This document shows positions 35,567 to 54,075 of a stretch of DNA of 64,000 bases, in pieces. The notes under the pieces were generated by a model, which was not told where the DNA came from, searched no databases, and saw only the letters and a list, made by a program, of their open reading frames with translations. Numbering within the stretch: the stretch's first letter is position 1; each line of letters opens with the position of its first letter. A program made the position numbers and the translations under genes. Source of the DNA: Kiritimatiellia bacterium (GTDB taxonomy: Bacteria > Verrucomicrobiota > Kiritimatiellia > CAIVKH01); NCBI GenBank assembly GCA_027493775.1, contig JAOSKE010000001.1:741651-805650 (forward strand), given 5' to 3'.

Positions 35567-35998
35567 CAACTGCTCTAACTGCTCCGGTGTCTTATTTAAA
35601 GCGTTGTTCAAATATTTTATACATACCTCAATTAGCTTTAGTCGCTCATCTTGCGCATCTACTAAACACGTGCTCAACTCTGCAGTGGCAGAGGTAGGCC
35701 ACACCTTTAATACACCACGAACATTCGGGTTCAAATAGACCTCAATACGACGCATCATGACATCACCGCTGATCCAAGTTCCAAATATAGAACACAAAAA
35801 CCTAAACAGATAGCTGCCAGCGTATTCACGCAAATATGAACCGCGCATCTCTCTTACAAAATAACCGCGACCATACGCGAGCAGGGTTATCTGTTCTTGT
35901 GGTGTTGTCGCAGAATCAACGCCTACATCCTGCCATCCATGGCGCTTCTTAATAAATTTTATATTGCTAATCTCATTCACCCGGCTCACGCCCTTCAT
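35477..35998 (-). CDS. Immunity-protein candidate for the CT3 Rhs toxin. Reads through its normal stop because of a 1-bp deletion relative to the paralogue at 55470..55877.
   Basis: The first 134 aa ([28 protein letters not shown]…CIKYLNNA) are identical to the 135-aa copy at 55470..55877. An A-run (tttaaag versus tttaaaag) shifts the frame, so the ORF extends into the REP-like element. The gene is AT-rich compared with the Rhs core. Confidence 0.5.
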
Positions 35999-36905: not shown

Positions 36906-37619
36906 CTACTCCATCCCGTTCATCTCCCCTTGGCCATTACTGATGATCGCTTCGAACCACGATAGGTAATTCATAATGCCATGGCAGGCAATGGCAGGAT
37001 ATAGACTCTTATAGCGGTCATAAATCACTGTAATTGAAAAGATGAATATAACTCGAACAAGAAAACTCCGTACACTTGTTGTCGATGATAAGTGCATCAC
37101 CGAGTGTAGTAACGTAACAATTATCATACTCAGTGTTCTTCCCCAACGATCTCGCAAGGCTTGATAGATCATGCCTCGGTAAAGCATTTCTTCAGCAATA
37201 GGTGATGCCAATACACTGGTAAACCCGCGAACGGTTGTCAGCAGTATTACGCTTTTTATAAAGTGCTCGCCGGTGGAATCAAAAAGTATTGGGATCCTTA
37301 TAGCTGATGGAGAAACGACAACGTGTACAGTCAAGTATATGGCAAGACCAAGCACACCACCACGAATTAGGCCGCGACTGCGCTGCTCCCGCGTGAATCC
37401 AAGCAAATCCCACGTCGCAGAATGTCGGCGGAGTATTGTGCCGACTCCGACAAGGACCGCTACATCGTAAAGGAAAACGGCAACGTAGGGATTGTGTCGT
37501 AGTGAATTGCTGAAACAAACTGCGGTCCCTATCGTAACAACCAGCGCAAACGTCCACACAAAGGCGCAGTCACGTACAGACCATGGGACGCGATCGCCTG
37601 AGTGCGGAGTCGCGTTCAT
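36906..37619 (-). CDS. CPBP/Abi-family intramembrane metalloprotease (CAAX protease self-immunity). Immunity candidate for the CT2 orphan toxin.
   Basis: Polytopic membrane protein with the EEMLYRG (EExxxR) motif and HxxxH-like …LLHSVMH… It overlaps the stop of the 37616..39379 toxin gene. Confidence 0.65.
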   Translation of the reverse strand: MNATPHSGDRVPWSVRDCAFVWTFALVVTIGTAVCFSNSLRHNPYVAVFLYDVAVLVGVGTILRRHSATWDLLGFTREQRSRGLIRGGVLGLAIYLTVHVVVSPSAIRIPILFDSTGEHFIKSVILLTTVRGFTSVLASPIAEEMLYRGMIYQALRDRWGRTLSMIIVTLLHSVMHLSSTTSVRSFLVRVIFIFSITVIYDRYKSLYPAIACHGIMNYLSWFEAIISNGQGEMNGME

Positions 37620-39379
37620 TCATCCCCGAAATCCGGTTGGGTAAAGGAATCCAGAATGGGAGTGATTATATTCAACATGTCCACAGCTTGGTCTCCAGTC
37701 GCGGACGGGAGGCTGTCACGATACTCCTGGTATTGCTGATAGAAACCGAATGGAACACAGTCTGTGACATCCTTCCATGCATCGCAAAGACCTTTTCTTA
37801 CCTTGTCAATGGTGTCATCAATAAGATGGTAAATGATTTCAATTTCCTTTTTTGTCGAATCTATAATAATTTCTTGTATATCTTGAAAAAACAATTTAAC
37901 TTCTTCCCCTGTACCGTACGGATCAAATTTATTGACAGGATCGTTTCCAATATATACGTATAAATTCGCTTGTCCTCCCCGGAATAAAATAGGATCTTTA
38001 GCGAGCCAGCGACCCGTCGTTGGGTCATAATCCCGATAGCCGAACCGCGTCAGCCCGGTATCCGGATCGTACAGTCCACCCGCGAACCCGAACGGCTGAA
38101 AGCCCGGATTGCTGTCCTGTAGGACGTTCCCCCATTCGTCGTAGTCCAAGCGTTGCACCACATCGCCGCTGGCAACATCAATGACCAGCCGTACGCTCCC
38201 CAAGTGGTCCGTAATGATCCGATACACATTTCCGGTCGTCACCATATAGTCCGGCACATTTACCCTGGTGGCGTACACAAATCTGGCAACTACTTGATTA
38301 TTTGAGTTGACCTCCGCCGCCGGCGTCAGAAAGCCTTGATATACCCACCCTTTATTCAACACACCATTAACCTTCTTGCCCACGCGCCGCCCCAGCGGAT
38401 CCAAGAGATATTCGTATGTATTGGTCCCAACCCGTACCTCCATCAGGCTGCCCCGCGTATCATACCGCGTGGCTCGCGTCGGAACTGCTCCATACATATT
38501 GGTCACCTGACCGTTCGCATTGTACTGGTACTGAATCAGACCCCAGAAGCTGGCCGTCAGCCGATCCTGGGCATCGTATTGATATGTTCTCGATGATCCC
38601 GCAATCCAGCTATTAGTCCGGTTTCCATTGGCGTCATACCAGTACCGCGCGCGCAGGCTTCCATTGGTGTACACCTCGTGGAGTCGCCCCACGGAATCAT
38701 ACACATAGGCGTAATTGTTTGTGACGCCCTCGATTCTCTCCAACCGATTCGTGATCCGTCCCAGCTTGTCGTATGAGTAGTCCACGCCGTAATAGACGTA
38801 ATCGTTGTCGAATACAGCTTCGTATGAACTCATCTCTCCGAGGGCATTGTACTTCCGGCGGTCACCGATATCGCCGACGACGGCATTGGTCAACCAGCCG
38901 CTAACCGTATCGCGATATAGCGTCATCGTCCCTGCATTCGTCAACAATCCGTCCAGGTCATACCCATACGCAACCGCGCTACCGCCCAACTCGACGCTCG
39001 AAATCCGAAAGTCGTTGTTGTAGCTGTAGCTCATGCGCCCAGTGATTACACCGCTTTGCGTCAGGTTCGTCAACAGTCCTCCGTCATAACCGAAGATCAA
39101 GCTTGCCCCGTTGGTCGCGTAGATGCCGCCCAACCGCCCCCGTGCGAGTGCGTAAGCCGAGCATGGGGGCTTGGGGTCTGATCCCGCGCGCGCCGCACGC
39201 ATCGCAGGAGACATGCCAGTGCGTCGTCGCGCTGGCGCGGCTCCTGGGCGCGCGCGTCCGCCTGTGGCGAGCTTGTCGAGCCAGCGCGAGTGAGCGTACG
39301 CGAACGAGCATAACGAGCGACCAACGGGAGCGAGTAGCTCCGAGGGCCGCGCCAGCGGCCCGAGGCAAGAGACAATCAC
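37616..39379 (-). CDS. Orphan Rhs C-terminal module (YD repeats, Rhs core, and CT2 toxin domain). Rhs homology begins near 39190.
   Basis: From …CACGRLGGIYATNGASLIFGYDGGLLTNLTQSGVITGRMSYSYNNDF… onward it is about 85% identical to the main Rhs (39725..43631) through …[33 protein letters not shown]. Then comes a unique roughly 100-aa CT (…GTGEEVKLFFQDIQEIIIDSTKKEIEII…). The first roughly 85 aa of the ORF are out-of-frame GC-rich junk. Confidence 0.7.
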   Translation of the reverse strand: MIVSCLGPLARPSELLAPVGRSLCSFAYAHSRWLDKLATGGRARPGAAPARRRTGMSPAMRAARAGSDPKPPCSAYALARGRLGGIYATNGASLIFGYDGGLLTNLTQSGVITGRMSYSYNNDFRISSVELGGSAVAYGYDLDGLLTNAGTMTLYRDTVSGWLTNAVVGDIGDRRKYNALGEMSSYEAVFDNDYVYYGVDYSYDKLGRITNRLERIEGVTNNYAYVYDSVGRLHEVYTNGSLRARYWYDANGNRTNSWIAGSSRTYQYDAQDRLTASFWGLIQYQYNANGQVTNMYGAVPTRATRYDTRGSLMEVRVGTNTYEYLLDPLGRRVGKKVNGVLNKGWVYQGFLTPAAEVNSNNQVVARFVYATRVNVPDYMVTTGNVYRIITDHLGSVRLVIDVASGDVVQRLDYDEWGNVLQDSNPGFQPFGFAGGLYDPDTGLTRFGYRDYDPTTGRWLAKDPILFRGGQANLYVYIGNDPVNKFDPYGTGEEVKLFFQDIQEIIIDSTKKEIEIIYHLIDDTIDKVRKGLCDAWKDVTDCVPFGFYQQYQEYRDSLPSATGDQAVDMLNIITPILDSFTQPDFGDE

Positions 39380-39762
39380 CTAGCGCCAAGCGTAACATTC
39401 AAGGGCAAGACGGTGAACGCGGCAAAAACGACTGCAAGAATAACCAATAGAATGCCCGCGACTCGCAATGTGGCACTGTAATCGTGCGCGAAATGAATGC
39501 GCTGATTGACAACCCACAATAGAATTGACGCGGCCGCCAACACCCAAGGCAGGCACCACCAGACAGGCTGCATCACGTACAGCGAACCGGCCTTTTCTTC
39601 ATAAATTTCCAAAAGAAAAGGCCGAAGGCCGCGGACGAGAAACGCACACCCCAGCCAGAGCAACAACCCAAGAAAGGCAGAAGTCGAAATTGTTTGAATG
39701 TGTTTCAATGCGCGCTTCACAAAGTTACTTCTGTGGAGGATCGGGATCTGGTTTCTTGCCAC
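39376..39762 (-). CDS. Small membrane protein. Immunity candidate for the main Rhs CT1 toxin.
   Basis: 128 aa with 3 TM helices (…AFLGLLLWLGCAFLV…, …WWCLPWVLAAASILLWVV…, …GILLVILAVVFAAFTVL…). It overlaps the Rhs stop. Confidence 0.45.
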   Translation of the reverse strand: MARNQIPILHRSNFVKRALKHIQTISTSAFLGLLLWLGCAFLVRGLRPFLLEIYEEKAGSLYVMQPVWWCLPWVLAAASILLWVVNQRIHFAHDYSATLRVAGILLVILAVVFAAFTVLPLNVTLGAR

Positions 39763-42700
39763 ATCCTTGATCCTTCATTTGGTCCAGAATCCAGTCGATC
39801 AATCGTTGGTGCCGCCACACTTCGATCATTCCCCAGTAATTCCACTTATTGCCAGGCTGATCCAAAACAGCATCATCAACCTTATTCGCGATTTGGCCCA
39901 TAAGGTGGGCAAAACCTCCAAGAATAGATTCGCCGATGCTTTTCTCGAATTCGTTGATCACAGGGTCGGGGTGTCCAGAGGCGGGATTACCCGCTTGATA
40001 GCCTCCGACTTGGCTCGGCGGAACCCCCTGTTGTGCAACCTGCATCGCAATCGCTTGGCCTTCCTGGGCAAGACCAAGTGCGGTCTGCAATTCTTCGCAA
40101 GTGTAAAGGCCCCAGGGATCGATGTAGTTGATCGGGTCGCCGTAACAGTAAGCGTAGAGGTTCCAACCTCCTCTAAACAGGATGGGGTCTTTAGCGAGCC
40201 ACCTTCCAGTCATCGGATCATAATCGCGGTATCCGAACCGCGTCAGCCCGGTATCCGGGTCATACAGACCTCCCGCAAACCCGAACGGTTGGAATCCGGG
40301 GTTGGTGTCCTGCAACACGTTCCCCCACTCGTCGTAGTCCAACCGCTGAACCACCTCTCCGCTATCAACCTCAATGACCAGCCGCACGCTGCCCAAGTGG
40401 TCCGTGATGATCCGATACACATTCCCCGTCGTCTGCATGAAGTCCGGCACGTTTACCCGCGTCGCATACACGAACCGCGCCCGCAGGCTCCCGTCTGCGT
40501 TCAGTTCTGCGATCGGCCGCAGAAACGACTGGTAAATCCAGCCCCGCTCAAATTGGCCATTGACCTTCTTCCCAATGCGCCGCCCCAATGGATCGAGCAG
40601 GTATTCGATATCCGTTCCGTCGGGCAGTCCGACGAACGCCAAGCTGCCCCGCAGGTCGTAGTCATACGTGATGGTATCCCCGGAATTCGTGCTGAACTCG
40701 TCCACTGAAAAGTTCAACCAGCCGTTTGCGTGAAAATAGTTGGTCACCCCGCTGTACGAGGTCAACTGGTCCTGCTCGTTATACGTCCACTGGCGCGTCT
40801 GCCCCATCACCCAACTGCCGGTCCGGTTTCCATTCGCGTCATACCAGTACCGCGCACGCAGGCTTCCATTGGTGTACACCTCGTGGAGACGCCCAACAGA
40901 ATCATACACGTACGCATAGTTGTTTGTGGCGCCCTCGATTCTCTCCATCCGGTTCGTAATCCGCCCCAGTTTGTCGTATGAGTAGTCCACGCCGTAATAA
41001 ACGTAATCGTTGTCAAATACAGCTTCGTATGAACTCATTTCGCCAAAGCCATTGTACTGCCGCCGGTCGCTGATGTCGCCGACGACTGCGTTGGTCAGCC
41101 ATCCGCTCGCCGCGTCGCGGTACAACCTCATCCCTCCCGCATTCGTCAATAACCCGTCCGCGTCGTAGTTGTAGGCCGCGACGTTGCCACCGAATCCGAT
41201 CCCCGCCACCCGAAAGTCGTTGTTGTAGCTGTAGCTCATGCGGCCGGTGATTACACCGCTTTGCGTCAGGTTCGTCAATAGTCCTCCGTCATAACCGAAG
41301 ATCAAGCTCGCTCCATTGGTCGCGTAAATCCCGCCCAACCGCCCGCAGGCGCAGTCATAGACGTTGGTCACTTTGTTTTCCGGCCACTGAACACCAACCA
41401 GGAAGCCAGCCTGATTGTATTCGTTGGTGATTACGCGTCCATCAGGATACGAAATGCTCGTGAGATGGCGCGCTTCGTCCCAGGTCATCAACATGTTTGT
41501 CGGTCCGCCGACCGAAGGCGAGGAATAACGATCCAACAACCCCACGGCGGTGTAGCCCAACGTGTGCTCTGTCCTACCGGGCGGCGTTACCCCAATCGGG
41601 GCGGTTGTCGGCTGGGGTCTCAACCCGATTACAGAACTGTCGGGCAGCACAACATTCGTCACACGTCCAATAGCGTCTCCCCGCAACAATACCGATTCGT
41701 CCAATGCGTTGGTAAACGCAGCCCGAAAACCGTTTGTAGCATAGGCCAGATGCACGACCCGATTAGACTGTTGAATTTTACTCATACGGCCATAAACGTC
41801 ATAATCTACCGTCACAGGAATGATGCCGGGCATATTCCATTGAACGGGCCGCCACTGCGAATCGAATTCGACTGCGCTCGTCTTCCCCATCGGCGAAACA
41901 CTCTGTAGCGTACGATCAATGGAGCTGAAAACAACCTGTGAAGTCCGTCCATTTACCGTGATCCAGTTTGTAAACGAGAGCAGTTGGCTTGCCGGGTTGG
42001 TTGGAACGAGAAGCGAATATGACCTGCCGATGCGGATGTCGTTCGTCAATCCAGCAGGCGTACGCACCACAATTTGCGTCTCAACCATAACGGAGGAACC
42101 GAAGCGAGGATCAGCAACCGATCGGGTTAAGGTCACCATCCCATTGGGGCTGGTGACCTCGGAGGTCAGCCCGTCGGAACTGGTTCTGGTTCTCGTCACG
42201 GCGCCGGCTGAATTGATTGCTTCATCAACGCGGTCTCCATTCCAATCCGTAGATGAATTATAAACATTTGTCCGATTCAGCGAGTACGTATGTACAATAC
42301 TTTTTCGGTTATATACATTCGCTAGAGTCACCGCATCGAAGCCACCCGCCGGATCTTCCGCCCGCATGGCCTTGCCTTCGGCATCATAGGTGACCGCATA
42401 AACAAATCCTCGGCGCGAAACGATATTGGTGAGCAAACCCGATTCCGAGTATCGGAACAAGTTGGTTTCGCCGGCAGGATTAACCAATCCGGCGAGCCAC
42501 TCATTGCTGACAACAAGATCGGTCTTTAGCCCGAATGGCCCTATAATGGCGGTTACCTGCCCATTGGTCATTCTCACCAGCGTTGTGGTCAGGCTGTTTG
42601 CGTCAACGACCTCCGTCAACAGATTGTTCGTGTCGTACACGAACGTATAAATATCTGCTCCGGTCAGCGCATCGACCGTTCGTAAATGCCGCCCATCCGG

Positions 42701-43631
42701 ATCCAGGACATAGTATTCGCTGCCGTCCGTCGCAACGGCAGCAAATTCGTTTGTGGGCGGGGTATTGGTGATGGAGAAAGAACATTCGGCATATCCCACG
42801 GGCGCAATTTTTCGATCACGGCCTTGACCTTCATGTAGATACCCGCTTTTCCCGTCGTACGAATGATATAAATTGATCGTCCAGCCACCCAACCCCCGAG
42901 AGCTGGCGGGCAAAGCTCCGAGATAAGAAACATCCTTTTTTTTTGCGAGAGGTATACCAAGGGATAATCGGCCTCTGCCTCAGTTGATCTTCCGTATATA
43001 GTTCTGACTCTCCAGCTACAGAATACAAACCCGAACGCTCTGTAATCGGCTTGTTTACAATTGCATGCGGATCCAATACATATCCCCCGTCAATAGGGGA
43101 AATAGCGCCACGGCTGGAGGTGATAAATAGTCCTCCAGAATATCGTTCGCCGCTAACGTTTTCATATTCATCCAGCGTGAGTTTATCCATAAATATTGCA
43201 GTCGAGTCCACAACGGCTGGTGTTGTTCCATAAACAAAATTACTTTCGGCATCGCGACCATCCCACAAAAGGCTCCAATAGTGATTGGTGAATGGCGCCG
43301 CCTGTGTATGCCTGAATATGCGCCCGGCAATATTCACTGTTAACTCAACGGATATCATGTTGTTCGGAAATGTATTCGGGTCGGCATACCACACAACAAG
43401 GTTATACGCGGGCATATACCCGCGAGTTCTTCGGCTGGAATAGTGCAGCACAAAAGGCGTGCCTACAACCGGCATGTCTTCATGAAAGCTCGCATCGGAC
43501 AACACAATATATCCATAATTCGTGGGGGTGACGGGACTGTCGGGCGGGGTCTGTTTTGCGGCCCAGCCGTCTTGCGCAACGGCCCATACCACGCCAAGAA
43601 CGAGACCCATCAAGGAAAGGCGACGATTCAT
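39725..43631 (-). CDS. Rhs/YD-repeat polymorphic toxin (WapA-like, Sec signal peptide) with C-terminal toxin domain CT1. One frame break at an A9/T9 run.
   Basis: 42831..43631 is the N-terminus (signal peptide MNRRLSLMGLVLGVVWAVAQDGWAA). 39725..42913 carries many YD repeats (…GRITNRMERIEGATNNYAYVYDSVGRLHEVY…), the core …[33 protein letters not shown], and then a roughly 130-aa CT. The frames switch at the T9 run at 42936-42944 (…SRKKK…). Confidence 0.8.
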
Positions 43632-44278
43632 GGTTCACATCCTTTGCAGGGATTCCCTGAAATGACCCGGGGCAAAACGCGCTCAAAGCCCGATAAGGGA
43701 TTGCTCGCCATCGAGCGAGCCGCCAAATCTTGGGCAAGCGCTGGATTTGTCTCTTTCAACAACTGAAGCGCAACTATCCGATTTTGATCTTCGGCTTTAT
43801 CGGAGAGAAGCAATGCCGTCGCCGCATTTTCAATGTCGCTGGAAGAAGCCTTGGGGTCCGATTTCATCACCAGCATAGCCGTGCCGGCGCTTTTGTTTTT
43901 CACATCAAACGCCGTTTGTTTCAAAAAATCGCCAATGGCGCGTTGCTCCGAAGCCGAAACTTTCTCGCGCAGGTTTAGCTGTAAATACTGCATGATATAT
44001 TCGCGCGTAACGCGCTCGCAGTCAGTCTCGCCCGCAATCGCAATCAATCGCTGCGCCAAATTGGGAACAGGCGGCGATTTCGTTGTGATGCGCCGCAAGA
44101 GCCGATCTTTCTGTCCCAGCCATTCTCCGGCGGAAATATCCTTTGGCGGCTCTTTCATCGCAATGTAGGCCAACGCCCGTTCATCTTCGGTTAAGCCTTC
44201 ATTGGACCACACAAAGGGGTTCTGAGCCGCTGCGGAATATCCGGCAACAACAATGAACAAAATGAATAATGCCTTCAT
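43628..44278 (-). CDS. Secreted hypothetical protein between the giant LamG/TSP3 protein and the Rhs toxin (start/stop overlaps on both sides).
   Basis: Signal peptide MKALFILFIVVAGYSAAAQ. 216 aa, helical. ATGA-type overlaps at 44275-44278 and 43628-43631 indicate one operon. Confidence 0.45.
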   Translation of the reverse strand: MKALFILFIVVAGYSAAAQNPFVWSNEGLTEDERALAYIAMKEPPKDISAGEWLGQKDRLLRRITTKSPPVPNLAQRLIAIAGETDCERVTREYIMQYLQLNLREKVSASEQRAIGDFLKQTAFDVKNKSAGTAMLVMKSDPKASSSDIENAATALLLSDKAEDQNRIVALQLLKETNPALAQDLAARSMASNPLSGFERVLPRVISGNPCKGCEP

Positions 44279-47200
44279 GGTCCGCCGTGCCTCCCTATGA
44301 AGTTCGTCCCTTGGTAAACATCAATGATGTTGCAGAACGCGCCGGGTTGGTACTTGATGAACCGCACATTCAGCACGCCGGTTTCATCAAACTGCGAGGG
44401 CAGCCACTGATTGGTGATTCCACCATCTTCATACATGACGCCACCGATAATGACCTTGCCCTGAATTGACAAATCATCGAGCAAGGGACTCAGAACAAAT
44501 GGATTTTCGTACAAATAATAATCGGCGCTGCAGGCGCCTAGCCGCGTAAACCCGGTGTCCGAATCGGCTCCGAAACGAAAAGCGCGGGCTTTTGTTGAGG
44601 CGATGATCGGCCCCTGCGAACCCAAGCGGGCAACGATACCGTGTTCGTCGGGTGTCAATGCCGTAAGGCGGAATGTTCGCGGCGTTGCGTAGGCATCTTC
44701 TTCAATAATCAAATTATTGCCCGACTCAAGAAGCACATTCGTGGACAGGCCCGGAGACGTCCATGACCGGGGCACCCTATGCCAACACGCGGGGCTCTCG
44801 TCAAAGTTTGCTGAATATACGAGCACGGTAATGGCGCCATATTGAGTGGGACCAGCAGCGGGGTAATATGCGCCGGAAACCAGATAGCTTCCGGTTGAGG
44901 CAAACGTGTGGGCAATAGCAGCGCCGGCGGCAAGTCCCGTATAGTTGGAGCCACCCGTGATCGTAATGCTGTGCGTGCCTGATGTTGCCCCAACAGGAAA
45001 GGCCGATAACTTCAGTGCATCATTGAGCCGAATTGAAAGTGTGGCCCTATTCGTCAGCACATCGGTTGCAGACCACGTGACCAGACAGGTGGAAATCAAT
45101 CCGCTGTGCTGGAATTCAAAGCGGCAAGCGGTCGCATTGGTCAAGTTCAGCGGCACATTGGCGTACCACCGGCCATCAATACCGGACTGAACCGTGACTC
45201 CGCCATCAGCCGAAATCAGCCCGACGAATGGATCCGGTCCCTCCACACAGGCCGGCGAGATGGCGCTGGAAACGCTGTTTGTATCCAAGCCGCTCAATCG
45301 TGCCAGTCGGTTCTCTACCCAATCTTTCTGTCCGTCCTCATCCGTATCGGCGCCATCCAGTTGGATCAGTCGTATCGTATGGATACTCAGGCGACGGGCG
45401 TCGGATGCATTATCCCATTCAAGGGTCAGCGAATAAACACCTGCGGTCATCCATGGTGTGAAGAATCCCGCCCGCCCGCTTCCGTTGGTTTCAGCAAAGA
45501 GGATTTGTCGCCCCAGATAGGCTCCGCCTACCTTGGCTTTCAATTCATATGAGTTTAGCGTTTTCCACGACTCGCAATCGCCGCCCTCAACTTCGATGCG
45601 ATAGATATCGCCCGTGGGTATTGTCAGGTTATACCTAACGGCACCTCGCAATCCGACCGAGCACAGATAATCGCCGTCTTCAGTCCATGGCCCTAAACGG
45701 CTAACCGTAGCGGTTCCCGGCATTTCAGATACCGTGACATAATTCGTGTAGTCGGCTTGAAGCGGGTTGCTGCCGAAGTCATACACCTCCATGGCGTCAT
45801 CCAACCCGTCGCCATCACTATCTTGAGAAAAGGGATTTGTTCCGTGCTGGTATTCTTCAAGATTTGAAAGTCCATCCCCATCCGAGTCCAACAGGGCATC
45901 GCTTGGATCATTAGGATTAAGTCCGTTGATATATTCCCAATTATCGGGCAATCCGTCGGCATCGGTATCCGCACTTTGTGGATTCGTCCCAATACGATAT
46001 TCGTCCAGGTTGGATAACGTGTCGCCATCGGGATCTAAAACGGCATCTTCAGGTGCGTTTGTACTCAAAATAGCGGGCCATAAAACCTCCCATCGATCAG
46101 GCATTCCGTCGTGATCGGTGTCCTTGCTTACCTGGACGGAAATATCGTCGAAATAAACATGCCCCGGAGGGACAAGATTTACGGTCGGAGCGACAGTGCG
46201 CAGTGATATATGGGCGAACCCCGCGCGGCTGGGCACCAAGCTCGTGATTGAATAATACAGCCACGTATCTTTTGCATGTTCCGCAGTCATCCTTGCCGTA
46301 TCGACCCGTGTTTTGTGCCCATCTGTCGAGTCGTAATACTCCAAATCAATGACCGCATATCGGTCTCCGCTGAGCGCATTTGTATCGATACCATTTGTCA
46401 CGGAGGGGGTGTACAGCCAACCACCGACAACCAGTTCTTCTCCCGGATGCACGACAATCCGTTGATAGGCGCCGTCCAAGTCTCGGGCCACAAATGACCG
46501 AATCCCACTGTGAACGATTGAAGTAGAAACGCCGCCATCCAAGCCAAACCCGCCCCAATTGGGCATATTGGTATGCGAAGTGGGCGTCCCCGTTTCAAAT
46601 CCTCCGTTCCGAAAACGAGTTTTGTCTGGATCCAGCCGATAATCGGCATTGAAAAATTGCGGGCCAACCGCTTGCGGATAAACGATGTAATTATTGTAAC
46701 CGTATCCGTTTCCGAGTTCCTGAGGTTTATCGATAACCCACAGATATGATTCTTGCTGAGCATTCGTGAGCACTCGGAGAAGTATTGAATAATACGCTTG
46801 GACGTAGTTGCTTTCGACCGCCGACGGCATCGGCCACGAGAACTTGAACACCGGGAGCGTCACCTGCCCCATGGTTGGCATTCCATGGAAGGGATTCGCT
46901 GAAGCGATTACCACATTTGAATAAAATGTACCCGCATATTCGGGGGAAGCCCAATTGCTACCGTTTGTCGTCCAGGAAAATCGCAGGAACAGTTGAGTGG
47001 TACTGCCATCACGCAATCCAAGCTTCGGCGGCAAAACCAAAAATGCAGTATTGGTTTTCGAGTCGTAATCCACCATCAGGAAGCGCTGCCAGTTTTGCGG
47101 AACGGGTTCCCATGTCGCAATGCTGTCACTGGAGCGCGAATGATAAACCCAATTGCTGTTGATCCCCGTTATGGCAATCGTGTTGGTCGGATTGCGCCCC

Positions 47201-50200
47201 AAGATTAATTCTGTTCCGTCATCGATTCCATCGCTGTCCGTATCAAAAACCAGCGGACTGGTTCCGTATATAAAAAGCTCGTCGTAGTCTGAAATCCCGT
47301 CTCCATCCGTATCTGTCAGACGGGGGTCAGTACCATGAACATTGATTTCATCCCAATCAGATAAACCGTCTCCGTCAGAGTCTTGAACATTCGGATTCGT
47401 GCCCAGTTCGTATTCCTGAAGATTGGACAACCCATCGCCATCCGCATCTCCGAGGGCGTCGTACATCGTGGCCACGTCGTTGCTGGAGAGAGCGGAGGTG
47501 TAGAGACGAACGTCGTCGAGCTGGCCTTTCCAAAAATAGCTGTCGCCCGGATCGTTGGCCCAACCAATGCGCAGTTCTGGTTCCATCGCGGGTGAAAAAC
47601 TTCCGCCGTTGGAGGCGACTTCCACTCCGTCGCGATAGAGACGGGTGGTCGAACCGTCGCGGGTCAGGGTGATTTGCGTCCACTTTCCGGCAATCGGGGA
47701 TTGGTGAATCGGGAAGGAGCTTCCACCGGCACAATTAGCAAGAAAACCGCCATAGCCATTGTTGAAGTTGTCCCAACCGAGCCAGAAACCTTTGTACAGG
47801 TAGCCGCAAAGAATGAAGTCGGCGATGATGGAGGGGTAATGCGAAGTGAAGGTTCCGTCGAGATTTACCCAGGCGCTGGCCGTAAATGTCGAACCCGTTA
47901 TCATGGCCACGGGCTGCAAGACTCTTACGTAATCGTCCGTGCCGTCGAACGACAAGGCGCCGCCCAGCATCCCGGAGGTCCAGGCGTTGGTCGGCATGTT
48001 GACCAATTGCCCGTTATAGCCGCTGCCCGCCGAGTTCAATGCGTTTGTCCCTTCCGTTTCATCGAATTTCCACCAGCCCTCGCCCTCCGCGGGCACACGC
48101 GAGGTCGGATTGAATCCATGCAGCATCTCCCACCAATCCGGCATTCCGTCCGCGTCGGAGTCGGGATCGATGAGCACAAGGTTTGCGTTCGTTGTGCTTT
48201 GCGCCAGCAAAATAGGGTTGTTGCTATACGCTCCCCACGCCTCGGCGTTGTCTTTCGACGCATTCGTGTTCGAATCCCGATATGCCTTCAACCGGTAGCT
48301 GGTCTGATTGGGAATATTGCTGATCGTGTATGGGCCGGGACCGGGGATGGTTGTCGTGAAGAGGGAGAGGTTCGTTCCGGAACCTGTCGCATACAGGCTC
48401 GCTACTTCGTCGCCATCGAGGGTACGCGCGTAGATTTTCACCTCGTCAATGCGCCCCTTCCAGTAGCGATTGGGAGCCGTTGAGTATCCGTTTCCGATGG
48501 CCACGTTGTCCATGGATGGGTTGAGGCCCACCGTTCCACCCTGTCCCTGATGGGAGGAGTGAAACTTGTACGTCCCGTTGTAGTACCCCCACGCATTGCT
48601 CCGATTCCACGTCAGGACGATGTGTTGCCAGCTTGCCGTTGGCATGCTGGCGGTGTACCAACACTGGCCGGTCAGACCCAGGCCGCCCCCGATAAATTCC
48701 CCCGTGCTGTAGGCTTCAAACCGAATGCAGTCGTCCCATCCGGCATAGTCTGTGGTGAACGGGTTTCGCCAGTTTTCCACTTCATCGGGGTTAACCCAGT
48801 AGGAAATGGTTCCTTCGGGCAGTACCCCCATGGGGCCAACAAGGATGTGATCGTTGGTGCCGTCATACCAATAAGCGCCGCCGCGATAGCCATTTGTGAC
48901 ATAAACAGCGCCGTTAACGATTCCAGTATAAAGCGGTGAGATCAGGTTTGAAACGCGACTCGTGTTCGGAATGTCGAAATCGTAGTGAAGCAGAAGCCCG
49001 GCTTCGATTTCGGCGCTCACAATGATCGGCCCCGTTTGTCGCCCGCTATACGTGATCACGCCGGCAAGGTTGACGGGATAAGAATCGGGCTGAGTCGGAT
49101 CGGTGCCTGCCTGGAGTTCCAACCAGTCAGCAGCGCCATCGCCGTCGCTATCGGGATCATACAGATCAATATCCACGCCGACCTTGTCAGCGCCCAGGAG
49201 AAAGCCGTTGCCATCATAAAACCCGACGGGCTCAAAATAATCTCGCATGCCATTTCCGTTGCTGTCCAGCCAGGCCATTACCCAGTAGTTGCTCAGAGTC
49301 GGCACGTGCGCGAATGAATAGGCGCCTGTGGTTGATTGGGAGGTGGTGCGCGTGTATTCGTCCGTGAAGCTGCTGCGGTAAATCCCCGCAATTTCCGCAT
49401 CGGTCAAGGTGGCGCGATAAAGCTGCACTTCGTCCATGAGGCCCCTAAAGGTCCAACCAGCTCCAGGGGACAGGTCGCCCAGGGCAGCGGTTACGTTATT
49501 GGATCGAATGGGCTGCGTGGCGAACACCGCGCTGGTGGCCACGAGACTGCCGTTCAGATAGAGCTTCGTTTGGACGCCGTTATAGGTTGCGAAGAGGTGC
49601 TGCCAGACGCCGTTGGTGATAATTGAGTCCTTAATGGCATCGCGAACACCATTTTGGTCAGCCGGCAGTATGCGCGTTTCAACACTCGATCCGTTGTTAG
49701 CCAAAATCATGTAGAGAGAGTCATCCCCAAAATAGGTCTTGCCCAATATGCCACCGAGCCAGATGCCAGGCTCGGCCTGAATCCATGCGCCCCAACTCAG
49801 ATTGTTGATGCCGACGGCCTGATATAGTTTTCCGAGTGTGATGGTGTCATTCCCGTCGAACGAATAGGCGCCGCCATGCTTGCCATTCGTTGTCCAGGTC
49901 GCCCCATTGACGGTCAGCGGAGTCTGCCAGGCGCTGTTGTCATACGTCGGTCTTGTGGCATCAAAACTCAATGATAACGCCGGTTGGTTTGTGATTACGG
50001 GATAAGCGGTGAGCTGAATGTGCAAGGCGCCCGTCTGTGATCCCGTGTAGCCGATTCGGCCGCTGAGCGTTGCTGGGAATGAGGCAGGGTTCAGTGGGTC
50101 GGCGCCATAAAATATTTCGAAAAAGTCCGTAGCGCCATCCCCGTCGCTATCAGCGGACTGAGGGTCAGTGCCCAATGCGTATTCTTGAGCATCGCTCAAT

Positions 50201-50403
50201 CCGTCGCCATCCGTATCTGTCACGAAAAGATCGGAATAATCAATCCCTGCATCAAAAATTCCGTTCCCGTTGCTGTCCTCTATAAAGTCAGCCAGCCCAT
50301 CGCCATCCGCGTCATTCGTCGTGCCGTAATGGAAGCCGATATCCCCAATGGAATTGGTCTCGCGCAACCCGCTCGCATCCGTAGTGTAGTGGTACATTCC
50401 CAC
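44275..50403 (-). CDS. Giant (>2042 aa) extracellular protein with repeated LamG-like (concanavalin-A-like lectin) domains and thrombospondin type-3-like Ca-binding repeats. The 5' end is truncated or disrupted by the ISL3 insertion.
   Basis: Multiple LamG-type jelly-roll units (…GGAYSFDGNDTITLG…WQHLFATYNGVQTKLYLNGSLVA…, …WQHIVLTWNRSNAWGYYNGTY…, …WTQITLTRDGSTTRLYRDGVEV…). TSP3 repeats (DTDGDGLSD, DSDGDGATD, DPDSDGDGAADW, DADGDGLSNLQE, DSDGDGLSDWDE, DTDGDGISDYDE, DTDADGLPDNWE, DSDGDGLSNLEE, DSDGDGLDD). The listed start is a GTG. The frame stays open upstream to about 50520 (…ANYLHPGSPAVNAGGTNADAVGMYHY…), where the ISL3 begins. Confidence 0.7.
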   Translation of the reverse strand: MGMYHYTTDASGLRETNSIGDIGFHYGTTNDADGDGLADFIEDSNGNGIFDAGIDYSDLFVTDTDGDGLSDAQEYALGTDPQSADSDGDGATDFFEIFYGADPLNPASFPATLSGRIGYTGSQTGALHIQLTAYPVITNQPALSLSFDATRPTYDNSAWQTPLTVNGATWTTNGKHGGAYSFDGNDTITLGKLYQAVGINNLSWGAWIQAEPGIWLGGILGKTYFGDDSLYMILANNGSSVETRILPADQNGVRDAIKDSIITNGVWQHLFATYNGVQTKLYLNGSLVATSAVFATQPIRSNNVTAALGDLSPGAGWTFRGLMDEVQLYRATLTDAEIAGIYRSSFTDEYTRTTSQSTTGAYSFAHVPTLSNYWVMAWLDSNGNGMRDYFEPVGFYDGNGFLLGADKVGVDIDLYDPDSDGDGAADWLELQAGTDPTQPDSYPVNLAGVITYSGRQTGPIIVSAEIEAGLLLHYDFDIPNTSRVSNLISPLYTGIVNGAVYVTNGYRGGAYWYDGTNDHILVGPMGVLPEGTISYWVNPDEVENWRNPFTTDYAGWDDCIRFEAYSTGEFIGGGLGLTGQCWYTASMPTASWQHIVLTWNRSNAWGYYNGTYKFHSSHQGQGGTVGLNPSMDNVAIGNGYSTAPNRYWKGRIDEVKIYARTLDGDEVASLYATGSGTNLSLFTTTIPGPGPYTISNIPNQTSYRLKAYRDSNTNASKDNAEAWGAYSNNPILLAQSTTNANLVLIDPDSDADGMPDWWEMLHGFNPTSRVPAEGEGWWKFDETEGTNALNSAGSGYNGQLVNMPTNAWTSGMLGGALSFDGTDDYVRVLQPVAMITGSTFTASAWVNLDGTFTSHYPSIIADFILCGYLYKGFWLGWDNFNNGYGGFLANCAGGSSFPIHQSPIAGKWTQITLTRDGSTTRLYRDGVEVASNGGSFSPAMEPELRIGWANDPGDSYFWKGQLDDVRLYTSALSSNDVATMYDALGDADGDGLSNLQEYELGTNPNVQDSDGDGLSDWDEINVHGTDPRLTDTDGDGISDYDELFIYGTSPLVFDTDSDGIDDGTELILGRNPTNTIAITGINSNWVYHSRSSDSIATWEPVPQNWQRFLMVDYDSKTNTAFLVLPPKLGLRDGSTTQLFLRFSWTTNGSNWASPEYAGTFYSNVVIASANPFHGMPTMGQVTLPVFKFSWPMPSAVESNYVQAYYSILLRVLTNAQQESYLWVIDKPQELGNGYGYNNYIVYPQAVGPQFFNADYRLDPDKTRFRNGGFETGTPTSHTNMPNWGGFGLDGGVSTSIVHSGIRSFVARDLDGAYQRIVVHPGEELVVGGWLYTPSVTNGIDTNALSGDRYAVIDLEYYDSTDGHKTRVDTARMTAEHAKDTWLYYSITSLVPSRAGFAHISLRTVAPTVNLVPPGHVYFDDISVQVSKDTDHDGMPDRWEVLWPAILSTNAPEDAVLDPDGDTLSNLDEYRIGTNPQSADTDADGLPDNWEYINGLNPNDPSDALLDSDGDGLSNLEEYQHGTNPFSQDSDGDGLDDAMEVYDFGSNPLQADYTNYVTVSEMPGTATVSRLGPWTEDGDYLCSVGLRGAVRYNLTIPTGDIYRIEVEGGDCESWKTLNSYELKAKVGGAYLGRQILFAETNGSGRAGFFTPWMTAGVYSLTLEWDNASDARRLSIHTIRLIQLDGADTDEDGQKDWVENRLARLSGLDTNSVSSAISPACVEGPDPFVGLISADGGVTVQSGIDGRWYANVPLNLTNATACRFEFQHSGLISTCLVTWSATDVLTNRATLSIRLNDALKLSAFPVGATSGTHSITITGGSNYTGLAAGAAIAHTFASTGSYLVSGAYYPAAGPTQYGAITVLVYSANFDESPACWHRVPRSWTSPGLSTNVLLESGNNLIIEEDAYATPRTFRLTALTPDEHGIVARLGSQGPIIASTKARAFRFGADSDTGFTRLGACSADYYLYENPFVLSPLLDDLSIQGKVIIGGVMYEDGGITNQWLPSQFDETGVLNVRFIKYQPGAFCNIIDVYQGTNFIGRHGGP

Positions 50404-50510
50404 GGCATCGGCATTGGTTCCACCCGCGTTGACTGCGGGGCTGCCTGGGTGAAGATAGTTGGCTCCCCGCTGTTCTGTGTGGGTAGCCGATCGGGGGCTC
50501 TGCCCCCCGG

Positions 50511-52085
50511 ACCCCCGGGATTTTTCGCTTTGAGGCTACCCCGCAGGCGGGTAGGACAGGCGCCACGGCGGTCTGTGGCCGCCGTGGCGGCCTGCGGGTT
50601 TAGCCCCTGAGTCGGCGCTCGGGTTGCATCCCTGCAGTGCCCTATCCTCCGCTCAGGCCGCCCGGAATGTACCGCAGGGGCGTCGGATGGGACAAGTCTA
50701 TGCAGATGAACGAGCTGTTTCGGGTCGCGCTGGGGTTGGATGCCCCGTGGCAGGTCACCAAGGTCGAGTTTTCCGAATCCGACGGAAAACTCCAACTGTG
50801 GCTGGATTTCCCGGCCGGCAGCACGTTCCCGTGTCCGGTTTGCGCCAAGTCCGGCTGTGGCGCGTACGATACCGAGGAGCGAACTTGGCGGCACCTGAAC
50901 TTCTTCCAGCACCAGACGTTGCTCCACGCCCGCCAACCCCGCATCCAGTGTCCGGAACACGGCGTCAAGACCGTGGAGGTGCCTTGGGCGCGTCCCGGAA
51001 GCGGCTTCACGCTGCTGATGGAGGCGTTCATTCTCCTGCTGGTGCAAGGCGGGATGACCGCGGCTCAGGTCGGCCGCCTGATCGGTGAGCACGACACGCG
51101 GATCTGGCGAGTTCTCCAGCACTATGTCCAAGACGGACGTCGCCGGGCCGATTTCTCGGATGTGAGCTTGGTGGGGATGGACGAGACGTCGCGGGCGCGG
51201 GGGCACTCCTACATCACTCTGTTCATGGACTTGATGCCGGGCCATCGGCGCGTGCTCTTTGTCTGCCCGGAGCGCGATGCCCAGACGGTCGGCTTCTTTC
51301 GGGAAGACTTCGTGCAGCATGGGGGTGATCCCGACGCCATCCGCCGGGTCTGCATGGACATGTCGCCGGCCTTTATGAAGGGAGCGGCGGAGCATCTGCC
51401 GCACGCCCAGATCACATTCGACCCCTTCCACGTTGCCAAGCTCGCTGGCGAGGCAGTCGATGCCGTGCGACGGGAGGAACAGAAACGACGCCCGGAGCTC
51501 AAGGGGACGCGCTATCTCTGGCTCAAGAACGAGTGGAATCATACCGAGAAACAGGCCGAGCAGTGGGCGGCCATCAAAGGTTGCCGTCTCGAAACCGGCC
51601 GCGCCTGGTTGCTCAAGTCCGCGCTACAGGATGTGTTCCTGCCCGAGAACCGGGTCGATGGCCCAGCGCTTCTGACCAAGTGGTGTGCGTGGGCACAGCG
51701 TAGTCGGCTGGTCCCCATGCTCGAACTGGCCCGCACGCTCCGGCGGCACTGGACAGGCGTCGTCAACTGGTTCGACTCCCAGATCAGCAACGGCGTTCTG
51801 GAGGCCATCAACGGGTTGGTCCAAGCCGCCAAACGCCGCGCCCGCGGCTACCGCAACGTCAACCACCTCATCACCATGATCTACCTGCTGCTGGGCAAAC
51901 TCGACTTCCACTTGCCCACACTGTCACCGGCGGTTACCCACACCAAATAGCGGAGAGGCAACATTTAAGACCGTGCCCCACCGTGGTAAGGCGCGTGGCA
52001 AGCGACCTCAGGTGATCTTAACTTAGCGCCATTCAGGGCTGACCCCTTTTGGCTTGGCGAGGTCGTTTTTCGAAAAGATTTTCCA
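50511..52085 (+). mobile_element. ISL3-family insertion sequence (boundaries approximate) inserted in the 5' part of the giant LamG gene.
   Basis: The transposase has ISL3 hallmarks. The left region contains a GC hairpin GCCACGGCGGTCTGTGGCCGCCGTGGC. I could not define inverted repeats cleanly. Confidence 0.5.
50700..51950 (+). CDS. ISL3-family transposase.
   Basis: N-terminal zinc ribbon (CPVCAKSGC…CPEHG), then VGMDETSRARGH, DPFHVAK and ISNGVLEAINGLVQAAKRRARGYRN. Start placed at MQMNELF rather than the upstream-extended 50637. Confidence 0.85.
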   Translation: MQMNELFRVALGLDAPWQVTKVEFSESDGKLQLWLDFPAGSTFPCPVCAKSGCGAYDTEERTWRHLNFFQHQTLLHARQPRIQCPEHGVKTVEVPWARPGSGFTLLMEAFILLLVQGGMTAAQVGRLIGEHDTRIWRVLQHYVQDGRRRADFSDVSLVGMDETSRARGHSYITLFMDLMPGHRRVLFVCPERDAQTVGFFREDFVQHGGDPDAIRRVCMDMSPAFMKGAAEHLPHAQITFDPFHVAKLAGEAVDAVRREEQKRRPELKGTRYLWLKNEWNHTEKQAEQWAAIKGCRLETGRAWLLKSALQDVFLPENRVDGPALLTKWCAWAQRSRLVPMLELARTLRRHWTGVVNWFDSQISNGVLEAINGLVQAAKRRARGYRNVNHLITMIYLLLGKLDFHLPTLSPAVTHTK

Positions 52086-52124
52086 AATATTTTTGAGCAG
52101 GGGTTTTTCAGCAGAACCAAATGT

Positions 52125-52382: not shown

Positions 52383-54075
52383 CTCCCACTAGCCCGGATT
52401 ATTCACGAAAAAACATGAAATACCGTTAAAATAATATTGGAAAACCTTTGTAACGTGCTATTGTTTAGATTGTTACAAAAACCATAACACAAGGTTTTCC
52501 AATGCCTGATACTTGCACAGACTGTTTTCTTTTTCCAGAACTTTTTCACAAGCCTCTTCACGTCAAATTCTCCGACCAGCGCCTCTCCAGTGATGGCGGC
52601 CTTTTGCTCCTCAAGGCGCGTGACCGGAAGATGAATCTTTGTCCGCGTTTGGCCGATGCCATCCTGGATCGCCGAGACGCTGCAAAGGTCGAGCACTCGC
52701 TGCTCAGCCAACTCCAGCAACGCATCTTTGCTCTGGCCGCAGGCTATGCAGATACCAACCAAGCCGCCGCCCTGGCCAATGACCCGATGTTCAAGCTCGC
52801 CTGCGGACGCTCTCCTTGACGATTCGGCTCTCGCCAGTCAACCCACGCTCTCGCGCTTTGAAAATACCGCCAGCGCCTCCGATTTATATCGGATGAGTTC
52901 TGCGTTCATTGATGCCTTGCTCGCGTTGCTGCAAAAGCGTCACCGCGCTCCGCGGCGAATATGGATGGATGTAGATCCCACCTGCACTCCCACCTACGGC
53001 GCACAGCAACTGACCCTCTTCAATGGATACTATGATACGTGGTGCTATCTGCCCTTGGTCTTCACCATTTCATTCGACGCTGATCCTCGCAAATATCCGC
53101 TCGTACTGCTCTTGCGCCCAGGCAATGCGGACGCCATGCAGGGTGTTTTGCCCGTTCTTCGCCGCTTGATCCCTCGCCTGAAGACGCTCTGGCGCAAAAG
53201 CCATCTCTGGCTGCGCGCGGACAGCGCGTTTGCTCGATCCGACTTGCTCGACTGGCTTGACCAGCAGCGTATCGGCTACGATATAGGAGTCGCCTCCAAT
53301 GGCGTGTTGGCGCGTGAAATGAAAGAAGCGCTGGAGGTGGTGCGCGAGCTGGCGACACGCGACCAGGAGACGGTCACCTTCTACCTCGACACTTTATATC
53401 GCGCGAAGAGGTGGAGCCGCCCACGGCGGGTACTCTGTAAAGTTGAGGTGGTTCATGCTCTTGAGAAGGCGCCACGGGACAATGTTCGCTATCTGGTCAC
53501 GACGGGTACGAGCAGTCCGAAGCACGGTTTTGGACGGTACTACGGACATTCGGACATGGAGAATAGTATCAAGGAACTTAAGCACGATGCGGCCTTGGGT
53601 CGCTTTTCTTGCTCTCGGGCCAGCGCCAACCAGTTTCGAGCGATTCTTTCGTTGGTTGCGCTGACGCTTGTTCAGGGCTTGGCCTCCTCGTGGAAGGGCG
53701 GCGAGCTTCGTTCGCAAATGGATACGCTGCGCACTTGTTTGCTGAAGGTTGCGGTTCGGGTCAAGGAGACGGCCCGGCGAATCGTGATTGAGCTGGCCGA
53801 GGATTATCCTTGGAAACATCGCTTTCGGCGCTGCGCCCTGGGACTTGGTGCGGTTCCGATTTAGCCGCAACGACGCTCTGTAAATCCAGCCCTGCTCCCC
53901 GGCTCATCCCCGGATGGCCCCGCTATGCCAATGAGCGAAAAAAATCGCGAGAGAAGCCATCTCCGACAGCGCTCTGCAGAGCTTCAACACCGAGAACTCA
54001 TCAAATCCACGAAATTCACCCTCGCGATCTCGGAATTTATGCGTGTCCCACGGGGCTCATGAATAATCCGGGCTA
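52383..54075 (+). mobile_element. IS4-superfamily (IS4/IS701-like) insertion sequence with roughly 17-bp terminal inverted repeats CCCGGATTATTCA(C/T)GA.
   Basis: Left end CCCGGATTATTCACGAAAAAACATG. Right end …CATGAATAATCCGGGC. A deletion derivative sits at 24903-25396 and a solo end at 36812-36866. Confidence 0.65.
52502..53864 (+). CDS. DDE transposase of the IS4-superfamily element, in two frames (52502..52819 and 52656..53864).
   Basis: The N-terminal frame ends …DPMFKLACGRSP*. The second frame continues …LLDDSALASQPTLSRFENTASAS… through the DDE region (…WMDVDPTCTPTYG…, …LRADSAFARSDLLDWL…, …YGHSDMENSIKELKHD…). The break lies near 52810-52820. Confidence 0.65.

Follow-up and report, generated by a model that had tools for sequence, protein, structure and literature searches.

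How does a toxin that leaves the cytoplasm by the Sec pathway reach another cell when no dedicated secretion apparatus is encoded beside it? The question is raised by a locus of Rhs-type genes in a Kiritimatiellia bacterium (NCBI GenBank assembly GCA_027493775.1, contig JAOSKE010000001.1), within a stretch of 64,000 nucleotides (nt; positions 741,651 to 805,650 of the forward strand) that is called the window here. The delivery machinery of Sec-exported Rhs and teneurin-like toxins is unknown, as is stated explicitly in a 2026 structural paper (PMC13018210). The locus occupies 35.4-50.5 kb of the window with every gene on the minus strand. We consider it probable that it is a polymorphic toxin locus independent of a type VI secretion system (T6SS), in which a Sec-exported, teneurin-like Rhs protein fills the variable third slot of a conserved three-gene cassette. 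The genes and their parts are given below in window coordinates, the open reading frames (ORFs) being those of a program-made list, with lengths in amino acids (aa).

44275..50457, minus strand: 5'-truncated gene of a giant lectin/Ca-repeat surface protein (Pfam, frame, boundary of an insertion sequence, IS); listed as ORF 44275..50403 from its first GTG, the frame being open to 50535
43628..44278, minus strand: 216-aa ORF, gene of a secreted alpha-helical (HEAT/ARM-like) protein (ATGA overlaps on both sides, AlphaFold2 (AF2) model, hidden Markov model (HMM))
39725..43631, minus strand: main Rhs/teneurin-like toxin gene, 1301 aa after removing one A; listed as two ORFs, 42831..43631 (266 aa) and 39725..42913 (1062 aa)
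43557..43631, minus strand: Sec-type signal peptide of the Rhs protein, 25 aa (by eye: n-region MNRR, h-region LSLMGLVLGVVWAV, c-region AQDGWA with predicted cleavage before the next A)
43209..43490, minus strand: FN-plug domain of the Rhs protein, aa 48-141 (alignment to the FN-plug of BiTLP, a teneurin-like protein)
42936..42944, minus strand (T9 on the plus strand): A9 homopolymer that breaks the Rhs frame, the longest homopolymer in the 64-kb window
39728..40105, minus strand: C-terminal tip CT1, 126 aa after ..DPWGL (DPxGL boundary)
39376..39762, minus strand: 128-aa ORF, candidate immunity gene 1 for a membrane protein (114 aa from GTG 39720), directly after CT1
37616..39379, minus strand: Rhs C-part of 587 aa, orphan Rhs cassette 1, core plus a different tip, CT2 (homology to the main gene from 39139)
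36906..37619, minus strand: 237-aa ORF, candidate immunity gene 2 for a CPBP/Rce1-like (Abi-type) membrane protein (Rce1-like PF02517, 2.9e-16)
35973..36692, minus strand: Rhs tip of 239 aa, orphan Rhs cassette 2, core tip plus CT3 (Rhs_assc_core, 5.6e-23)
35477..35998, minus strand: 173-aa ORF, candidate immunity gene 3 for a soluble protein, directly after CT3 and kept with CT3 in a duplicate

A preliminary description of this DNA, made from the letters alone, had linked the first genes by 4-nt overlaps, and ATGA start/stop overlaps are indeed present at 44275-44278 (giant and 216-aa genes) and 43628-43631 (216-aa and Rhs genes). The further overlap that it placed between the Rhs and immunity genes at 39725-39762 exists with the most upstream GTG (39762); translation could as well begin at a GTG at 39720, in frame and 4 nt past the stop codon of the Rhs gene, which removes the 38-nt overlap. 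The lower limit of the locus, set at 39376, has to be moved, as the two orphan Rhs-tip/immunity cassettes, both left out of that account, continue the locus to 35477. Furthermore, the Rhs gene had been treated as a single gene, whereas it comprises two ORFs in the window, the frameshift at A9 having been missed. With these corrections the earlier observation holds, and it is to that extent partly confirmed. An Rfam search of the window returned no match.

The first step towards an answer is the nature of the Rhs protein. Its N-terminus, MNRRLSLMGLVLGVVWAVAQDGWAA, has the basic n-region, hydrophobic core and AxA-like end of a type I Sec signal, much as had been claimed. Residues 48-141 align to FN-plug residues 732-823 of BiTLP (whole-sequence E 1.3e-14) and to the FN-plugs of metazoan teneurin-2/3/4 (E about 1e-11), while the Pfam model FN-plug_TEN1-4 scores 22-25 bits, under its cut-off of 27.8. 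The YD shell is recognized by TEN_YD-shell (100.5 bits, cut-off 50) and RHS_repeat (4.5e-12), and its best PDB match is the YD shell of BiTLP (9pt5_A, Rhs aa 296-1179, E 1.9e-127), compared with about 1e-45 for metazoan teneurins and 1e-23 to 1e-7 for T6SS Rhs proteins. The core matches TIGR03696 (Rhs_assc_core) at 2e-21 and 76.3 bits against a cut-off of 32.5 and ends in GDPINYIDPWGL (DPxGL), and the core tip weakly resembles TccC/YenC2.

The protein is also short of several modules. An NHL propeller is absent, with residues 237-277 corresponding to BiTLP 882-922 and residue 296 to BiTLP 1266 and no NHL match in Pfam, so that about 340 BiTLP residues (923-1265) are without a counterpart. The 22 residues between the predicted cleavage site and the FN-plug leave no room for adhesion or TIP domains. 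Pfam searches of the Rhs protein at E<=1 gave no PAAR, VgrG-binding, SpvB, DUF6531, DUF4150 or other trafficking domain, and Pfam likewise found neither a cell-wall-binding domain nor an SpvB/TcdB N-terminal region or beta-propeller. The label 'WapA-like', used in the preliminary description, is therefore to be replaced: there is no wall-binding domain, the Kiritimatiellae are a diderm lineage, and the nearest proteins by sequence are the bacterial teneurin-like proteins (TLPs). These are reported from six phyla, Kiritimatiellota (of the Planctomycetes-Verrucomicrobia-Chlamydiae, PVC, group) not being among them (PMC13018210). Judged by its sequence, the Rhs protein is a Sec-dependent, teneurin-like polymorphic toxin with orphan cassettes, which is a known type, in a phylum not reported for TLPs.

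Many Gram-negative Rhs toxins are T6SS cargo (established knowledge; PMC13018210), and the inspected 64 kb are part of a 1.4-Mb contig; an alternative is accordingly that the Rhs protein is the effector of a T6SS or another dedicated system encoded outside the window, its hydrophobic N-terminus remaining uncleaved. We regard this as very improbable. Among the window ORFs of at least 150 aa, whose Pfam matches are to transposases, Rhs fragments and housekeeping genes, there is no Hcp, VgrG, PAAR, Tss or type VII secretion system domain, as had been proposed, and a motif scan of the shorter window ORFs gave no PAAR-like ORF. Moreover, the Rhs protein itself has no PAAR, VgrG-binding, DUF4150 or similar domain, its FN-plug begins only 22 residues past the predicted cleavage site, and its similarity is far stronger to Sec-targeted teneurin-like proteins than to T6SS Rhs proteins.

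The second step concerns the two genes upstream of this putative Sec-exported toxin. The giant protein was described as a lectin/Ca-repeat protein, and Pfam bears this out with Laminin_G_3 in three stretches (7.8e-52) and TSP3_bac in eight (4e-46); no TcA-like domain was found by Pfam. Genome and metagenome scans with its C-terminal region yielded relatives in a marine Verrucomicrobia metagenome-assembled genome (L006) and eleven metagenome contigs. The stretch common to these relatives is the last ~500 aa, and in some the last ~1000 aa, which defines the following feature:

44275..45762, minus strand: conserved C-terminal module (C-module), last 495 aa plus the stop codon (homologues, profile search, AF2)

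Homologues of the C-module (L005-L018 and P0124-P0128) share 27-46% identity with it; P0129, which is 100% identical to the giant ORF, is the window's own truncated protein. The C-module HMM scores the giant protein at E 2.7e-216, although the signal peptide and N-terminus are missing there owing to a break at an IS. The module itself is uncovered by Pfam and NCBIfam, whose matches in this stretch come from TSP3 repeats only. Its AF2 model (predicted local distance difference test, pLDDT, 80.2) comprises a predicted jelly-roll, a helix and several Ig-like sandwiches, for which Foldseek retrieved generic Ig arrays only from the PDB. An exhaustive profile search gave 1716 representatives at E<=1e-3, 1000 of them at E<=1e-30; the family size is visible by exhaustive search alone, a word-indexed profile search having returned 5 proteins only. 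The representatives are proteins of 450-4285 aa, and nearly all of them have the module at the extreme C-terminus. In 27 sampled C-module proteins, TSP3 occurs in 23/27, PA14 in 8/27, LamG in 6/27 and DUF1349 in 5/27, with RCC1 (3/27), GLEYA (3/27) and RHS repeats (1/27) being rarer, and 22 of the 27 have a signal-peptide-like start. The complete relatives L006, L008, L013 and L017 also begin with signal peptides. By their sequences, the N-termini of C-module proteins are thus of adhesin type (TSP3, PA14, LamG). A second large protein with TSP3_bac and Lamin-tail domains (31677-35108, 1143 aa) is encoded directly downstream of the orphan cassettes and is without a C-module.

The 216-aa protein, to which an NCBI entry labelled hypothetical (Kiritimatiellae bacterium) is identical, begins with MKALFILFIVVAGYSAAAQ, a signal-peptide-like N-terminus whose residues 1-19 form its sole hydrophobic segment. 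Its AF2 model is an all-helical solenoid (pLDDT 79.5) with no specific match in the PDB. The protein is homologous to the small proteins of the other loci (hhalign probability 97.6%, E 3.5e-12), and an HMM built without the window sequence matches it at E 2.3e-15, together with the proteins of L013 and L005. At their N-termini the homologues have either a signal peptide or a membrane anchor; matches to HEAT_2 are seen in several of them. Imm-HEAT immunity proteins are known from polymorphic toxin systems of Planctomycetes and Verrucomicrobia (PMC3482391), and the 216-aa gene stands directly after the giant gene, which together might suggest that it provides immunity to a toxic activity in the giant's C-terminus. 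This explanation is scarcely credible, given that in the different lineages the C-module stays conserved right up to its end and is not polymorphic, that it is predicted to consist of a jelly-roll and Ig-like sandwiches with no enzyme-like match, and that the small protein is itself exported or membrane-anchored. Elsewhere in the window, a 5'-truncated Rhs gene (60837-63230) is followed by a HEAT_2 protein (59657-60298; 4e-14), probably an immunity protein of the Imm-HEAT type; the idea that it might be a further member of the family of the 216-aa protein was dropped, the HMM showing no homology.

The third step is the constancy of this gene order. A 216-aa homologue lies directly after the C-module gene in all ten lineages with sequence extending downstream (the window with L001-4, L005, L006, L008/9, L010/11, L012, L013, L014, L016 and L017), and the cassette genes overlap or nearly abut in these diverged lineages. 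The third gene overlaps the small gene or starts within 30 nt of it, except in L014, the start/stop overlap of the two being found in the window, L006, L008/9, L013 and L017. Whereas the first two slots are constant, the third is not:

Window: Rhs-type, with signal peptide and CT1, then a protein with three transmembrane (TM) segments
L012: Rhs-type (RHS_repeat, 7e-17)
L010: Rhs-type (DUF6531)
L013: Rhs-type (DUF6531, 3e-13)
L006: alpha/beta-hydrolase-like (match under the Pfam cut-off plus GxSxG motif), then a signal-peptide protein
L009: DUF6973 protein, then a TM protein
L016: protein with an HExxH motif, then a HEAT protein
L014: protein with Ig repeats, truncated where the contig ends

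A signal peptide is present on the third gene product in 9/9 lineages in which the start of that gene is sequenced. Additionally, the third gene products of L006, L008/9, L010/11 and L012 have in common an N-terminal domain that contains Cys (N-[PD]-C), and the Rhs-type protein of L010 is fused to LamG and Ig domains. In L016, two signal-peptide proteins (12505-18469) share N-terminal Ig/PKD-like domains (61% identical over 127 aa), while their C-termini, one of which contains HEFGH, are unrelated, as is characteristic of polymorphic toxins. A protein of about 410 aa comes after each of them, and from its sequence this arrangement looks like a tandem polymorphic toxin/immunity array behind the C-module/HEAT pair. 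In L006, the stretch 10157-11445, 5 kb downstream of the cassette with the hydrolase-like third gene, holds an orphan Rhs tip (64% identity to the Rhs core of the window) and behind it a membrane protein of 125 aa. As far as searches of Pfam, NCBIfam, the PDB and the literature reach, the upstream pair is undescribed; literature searches for DUF6973 and for Kiritimatiellae together with Rhs found nothing.

A constant exported pair coupled to a variable toxin and immunity gene is the pattern expected of a polymorphic-toxin accessory apparatus, and at the level of sequence it supports a functional link between the pair and the toxin. We propose that the first slot would supply a signal-peptide surface protein with variable lectin/TSP3 repeats and the constant ~500-aa C-module, the second a small extracytoplasmic HEAT-like protein, and the third a signal-peptide toxin. 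The first two gene products may act as a cell-surface adhesin and a tether or adaptor, displaying or handing over the periplasmic toxin for contact-dependent delivery. In the window, the toxin would be a minimal teneurin-like protein, with a signal peptide, FN-plug, YD shell, DPxGL self-cleavage core and 126-aa tip, next to a membrane immunity protein. The suggestion of the preliminary description that the giant protein serves as the adhesin or scaffold of the toxin thus gains from a gene order kept in ten lineages, while co-transcription and the scaffold or delivery role itself stay proposals. The more general claim, that the lectin/TSP3 C-module protein and its HEAT-like partner form a widespread, undescribed accessory apparatus that would display Sec-exported polymorphic toxins (teneurin-like Rhs proteins, hydrolases and metallopeptidase-like proteins) or deliver them from or across the PVC outer membrane, target cells being selected by the variable lectin head, is put forward tentatively, as a possibility that we would not yet call probable.

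The same arrangement could arise if the lectin/TSP3 and HEAT-like pair were an independent adhesin unit, with toxin genes merely accumulating downstream of it, for instance at an insertion-tolerant site or behind a strong promoter, and the pair having no physical or mechanistic part in toxin export or delivery. The high variability of the third gene, the lack of the N-[PD]-C domain in the window's Rhs protein, and the wealth of IS elements, REP-like repeats and duplicated cassettes in the region are in keeping with such accumulation, as is the Rhs tip of the same family in L006, which stands 5 kb downstream behind a Y1 transposase gene and not in the third slot. Mere accumulation would not lead one to expect that the small and third genes are tied by start/stop overlaps in the window and four other lineages, that a signal-peptide protein occupies the third slot wherever its start is sequenced, or that the third gene products of four lineages have an N-terminal domain in common, as would suit a domain for docking or trafficking. 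We therefore judge the independent-adhesin explanation unlikely, though far from negligible, and continue with the accessory-pair proposal.

The fourth step is to ask whether the window's own copy is intact. The two Rhs ORFs are in different frames and meet at A9, and deletion of one A restores an uninterrupted 1301-aa protein. The same locus was found in four contigs (L001-L004; 98.8-99.98% identity) from independent short-read assemblies, of which three are Logan runs and one is an ENA metagenome. In each contig the tract is A8 and the Rhs ORF is uninterrupted, and three of the four are 99.96-99.98% identical to the window. Housekeeping genes of the window also carry frameshifts at short G/C runs: an amidase_3 gene (1716-2779) is split near 2270, and FeoB (10560-10960) loses its N-terminal G-domain near 10905. 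These frameshifts suggest that the window assembly is indel-prone. Because of the A8 in the four short-read contigs and the homopolymer frameshifts in housekeeping genes, A9 is probably an indel error of the long-read assembly. Caution is accordingly advised with the split Rhs gene in the public assembly, which probably reflects a homopolymer error.

The giant gene, in contrast to those of its complete relatives, has lost its beginning next to the following element:

50458..51962, plus strand: ISL3-family insertion sequence (transposase 50637..51950; inverted repeats)

The assignment of the neighbouring transposase to ISL3, made in the preliminary description, is confirmed by DDE_Tnp_ISL3 (6.4e-73), along with HTH and Zn-ribbon domains, and 32-nt inverted repeats lie at 50458-50489 and 51931-51962. 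The giant frame does continue past the GTG, as had been noted, and is open to 50535. Its native part does not reach the earlier limit of about 50520: as the left inverted repeat begins at 50458, native sequence ends at 50457, inside the motif ..Y-L-H-P-G-S-P-A-V-N-A-G, and the open frame beyond belongs to the IS. About 2060 codons of native sequence are left; in the public annotation the protein begins at an internal ATG, that of MYHYTT, and has 2040 aa but no signal peptide. The ISL3 flanks, TGAAGATA and ATTTAAGA, differ in the eight bases on each side, so that there is no target duplication, and to the right (51963-52706) lies debris of two other IS types. Of this debris, 52146-52304 copies the end of an IS4-like element at 59302-59460, and 52389-52706 copies 24902-25220 and runs into an IS1380-like transposase gene (52656..53864). 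In tblastn searches with the complete relatives, no giant-gene remnant was found upstream and nothing past 50457 within the window. The differing flanks, the IS debris and the lack of an upstream remnant indicate that the 5' part was lost by a rearrangement and not by simple insertion. The severed N-terminus had been recognized correctly: the ISL3-associated break took the 5' end, and complete relatives start with signal peptides. An IS-free 5' end was not recovered, the short-read contigs extending only to 47479 and a search for homologues of the 300 N-terminal residues of the giant protein being swamped by TSP3 and not returning even the query itself. In this genome the giant gene has thus lost its promoter, signal peptide and N-terminal domains by IS-mediated rearrangement, and the helper is probably dead. 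Elsewhere in the window, two tandem IS copies (26444-28571 and 28907-31032; 98.6%) encode a DDE_Tnp_1_6/DUF772 transposase, with 307-nt repeats between them.

With the giant's 5' end gone and no remnant upstream, an assembly that reads A9, and several truncated Rhs fragments and at least five transposase genes in the surrounding 30 kb, the locus might be viewed as a decayed relic, in which the giant is decapitated, A9 is real, neither the helper nor the Rhs protein is made, and perhaps only immunity matters. This we hold to be improbable in view of the A8 tracts of the short-read contigs, three of them nearly identical to the window, of the other homopolymer frameshifts in conserved window genes, and of an Rhs ORF otherwise intact over 3.9 kb.

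The final step concerns the tips of the toxin that is proposed to be delivered in this way. Three different tips follow near-identical Rhs cores, and each is followed by a small gene; CT1, CT2, CT3 and immunity candidates 1 and 3 belong to no Pfam or NCBIfam family. Immunity candidate 1 has three hydrophobic segments in a hydropathy scan. Orphan 1 matches TEN_YD-shell (1.7e-29) and Rhs_assc_core (3.3e-19), and its core DNA is 83-85% identical to the main gene, with 85% to 40821-41344. Immunity candidate 2 is joined to orphan 1 by an ATGA overlap and has several hydrophobic segments; CPBP/Rce1-like membrane proteins often serve as bacteriocin immunity. Orphan 2 and its partner gene are duplicated in direct orientation (35134-36656 and 55014-56535; 95.4% identity), the two copies flanking the main operon. 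Orphan cassettes of this kind could replace the tip by recombination in the common core DNA. In L002, positions 5348-5784 follow the main Rhs gene (41344-40908) and then switch to orphan 1 (39139-38703) at a common stretch, with 50/50 matches to orphan 1 against 33-47/50 to the main gene. The switch reflects either a natural exchange of tips, with loss of CT1 and the immunity gene belonging to it, or a chimera of the assembly. Membrane proteins make up two of the three immunity candidates, from which we infer that the tips would act on the target envelope, outside the cytoplasm; this also fits the finding that the tip of BiTLP shows toxicity solely upon targeting to the periplasm (PMC13018210).

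The surroundings of the orphan cassettes hold further repeats. An Rhs body repeat is shared by 56231-57872 and 61107-62748 (94%), and a Y1 (IS200/RAYT-like) transposase homologue is encoded at 63459-63989 on the plus strand, with a fragment of another at 57904-57999 on the minus strand. Repeats of about 40 nt resembling repetitive extragenic palindromes (REP-like) occur at the 5' borders of truncated Rhs fragments, at 57877-57916, 55019-55058, 63016-63055, 35541-35569 and 55419-55447. In L006, Y1_Tnp genes flank the orphan Rhs tip, as with the Y1 homologue of the window.

Several points weigh against the interpretation of the locus as a Sec-exported toxin with a coupled accessory pair. The functional link draws on synteny in only about ten lineages, and the toxin status of the non-Rhs third genes on weak matches or short motifs. 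The window's Rhs protein was considered as a carrier of the N-[PD]-C domain and rejected (hhalign probability 0.1%, HMM negative). Its signal peptide was judged by eye from the sequence, and a scan of the locus for promoters and terminators gave chance level only. The secretion-system negatives cover the 64-kb window of a 1.4-Mb contig, so that a distant T6SS is possible. Finally, A9 might be genuine, or the tract prone to slippage, in which case the Rhs gene would be a pseudogene or phase-variable.

If the more general claim is true, the accessory pair would supply the missing delivery machinery for Sec-dependent Rhs/teneurin-like toxins. A two-gene candidate, kept in ten diverged lineages and coupled in translation to toxins of this kind, gives experimenters concrete proteins to work on. 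Additionally, the C-module is a new family to annotate in Verrucomicrobia/Kiritimatiellae, with at least 1000 sequence clusters and no Pfam or NCBIfam model.

Among known systems, the window's Rhs protein is closest in sequence to the bacterial teneurin-like proteins, which are Sec-targeted polymorphic toxins with the immunity gene downstream (PMC13018210). With BiTLP of Bacillus inaquosorum (PDB 9pt5/9ifo; Raoelijaona et al. 2026) it has in common the FN-plug, the YD shell, the core cleavage motif, a short polymorphic tip (about 15 kDa), a downstream immunity gene, a Sec signal and the lack of a secretion apparatus nearby; unlike BiTLP, it lacks an NHL propeller, and it also lacks the TIP domain and the adhesion modules at the N-terminus that 96% of TLPs possess (PMC13018210). 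In typical TLPs the adhesion domains are fused to the toxin (PMC13018210), whereas in the window they are encoded by a separate upstream gene, which amounts to a split architecture.

WapA of Bacillus subtilis, with its immunity protein WapI, resembles the window's Rhs protein in its Sec signal, Rhs repeats, polymorphic C-terminal toxin, adjacent immunity gene and independence of a T6SS. However, WapA has wall-binding repeats and a monoderm envelope to cross, while the window's Rhs protein has no such repeats and a diderm host, so that an extra outer-membrane step is needed. The Tc toxins, in which TcA is combined with a TcB-TcC cocoon, are alike in that a very large upstream protein stands beside an Rhs cocoon with a cleaved tip. 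They are unlike in that the window has no SpvB, no TcB beta-propeller and no TcA-like domain, and in that all proteins here have Sec signals.

In Myxococcus, TraA/TraB comprises a receptor with a variable PA14 lectin domain and a constant remainder, and contact through it lets Sec-exported, polymorphic SitA toxins reach neighbours. The likeness is by analogy only and lies in the lectin-headed receptor, PA14 and GLEYA being found in 8/27 and 3/27 of the sampled C-module proteins, respectively. In contrast, the SitA toxins are lipoproteins encoded elsewhere, whereas in the window translational coupling joins the toxin gene to the putative receptor operon.

The closest described logic is that of MafA/MafB in Neisseria, where a Sec-signal toxin is always preceded by an exported accessory gene (PMC3482391; PMC4287609; Zhang et al. 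2012). MafB is followed by immunity genes and orphan cassettes, and the accessory protein is proposed to be a surface anchor (PMC3482391; PMC4287609). A constant exported accessory, a variable toxin, immunity and orphans are thus common to both systems. There is no sequence relationship between them, and in place of a MafA-like accessory and toxins with MafB-N, the present locus offers a lectin/TSP3 and HEAT-like pair, and the toxins are of Rhs type or are large proteins of other kinds.

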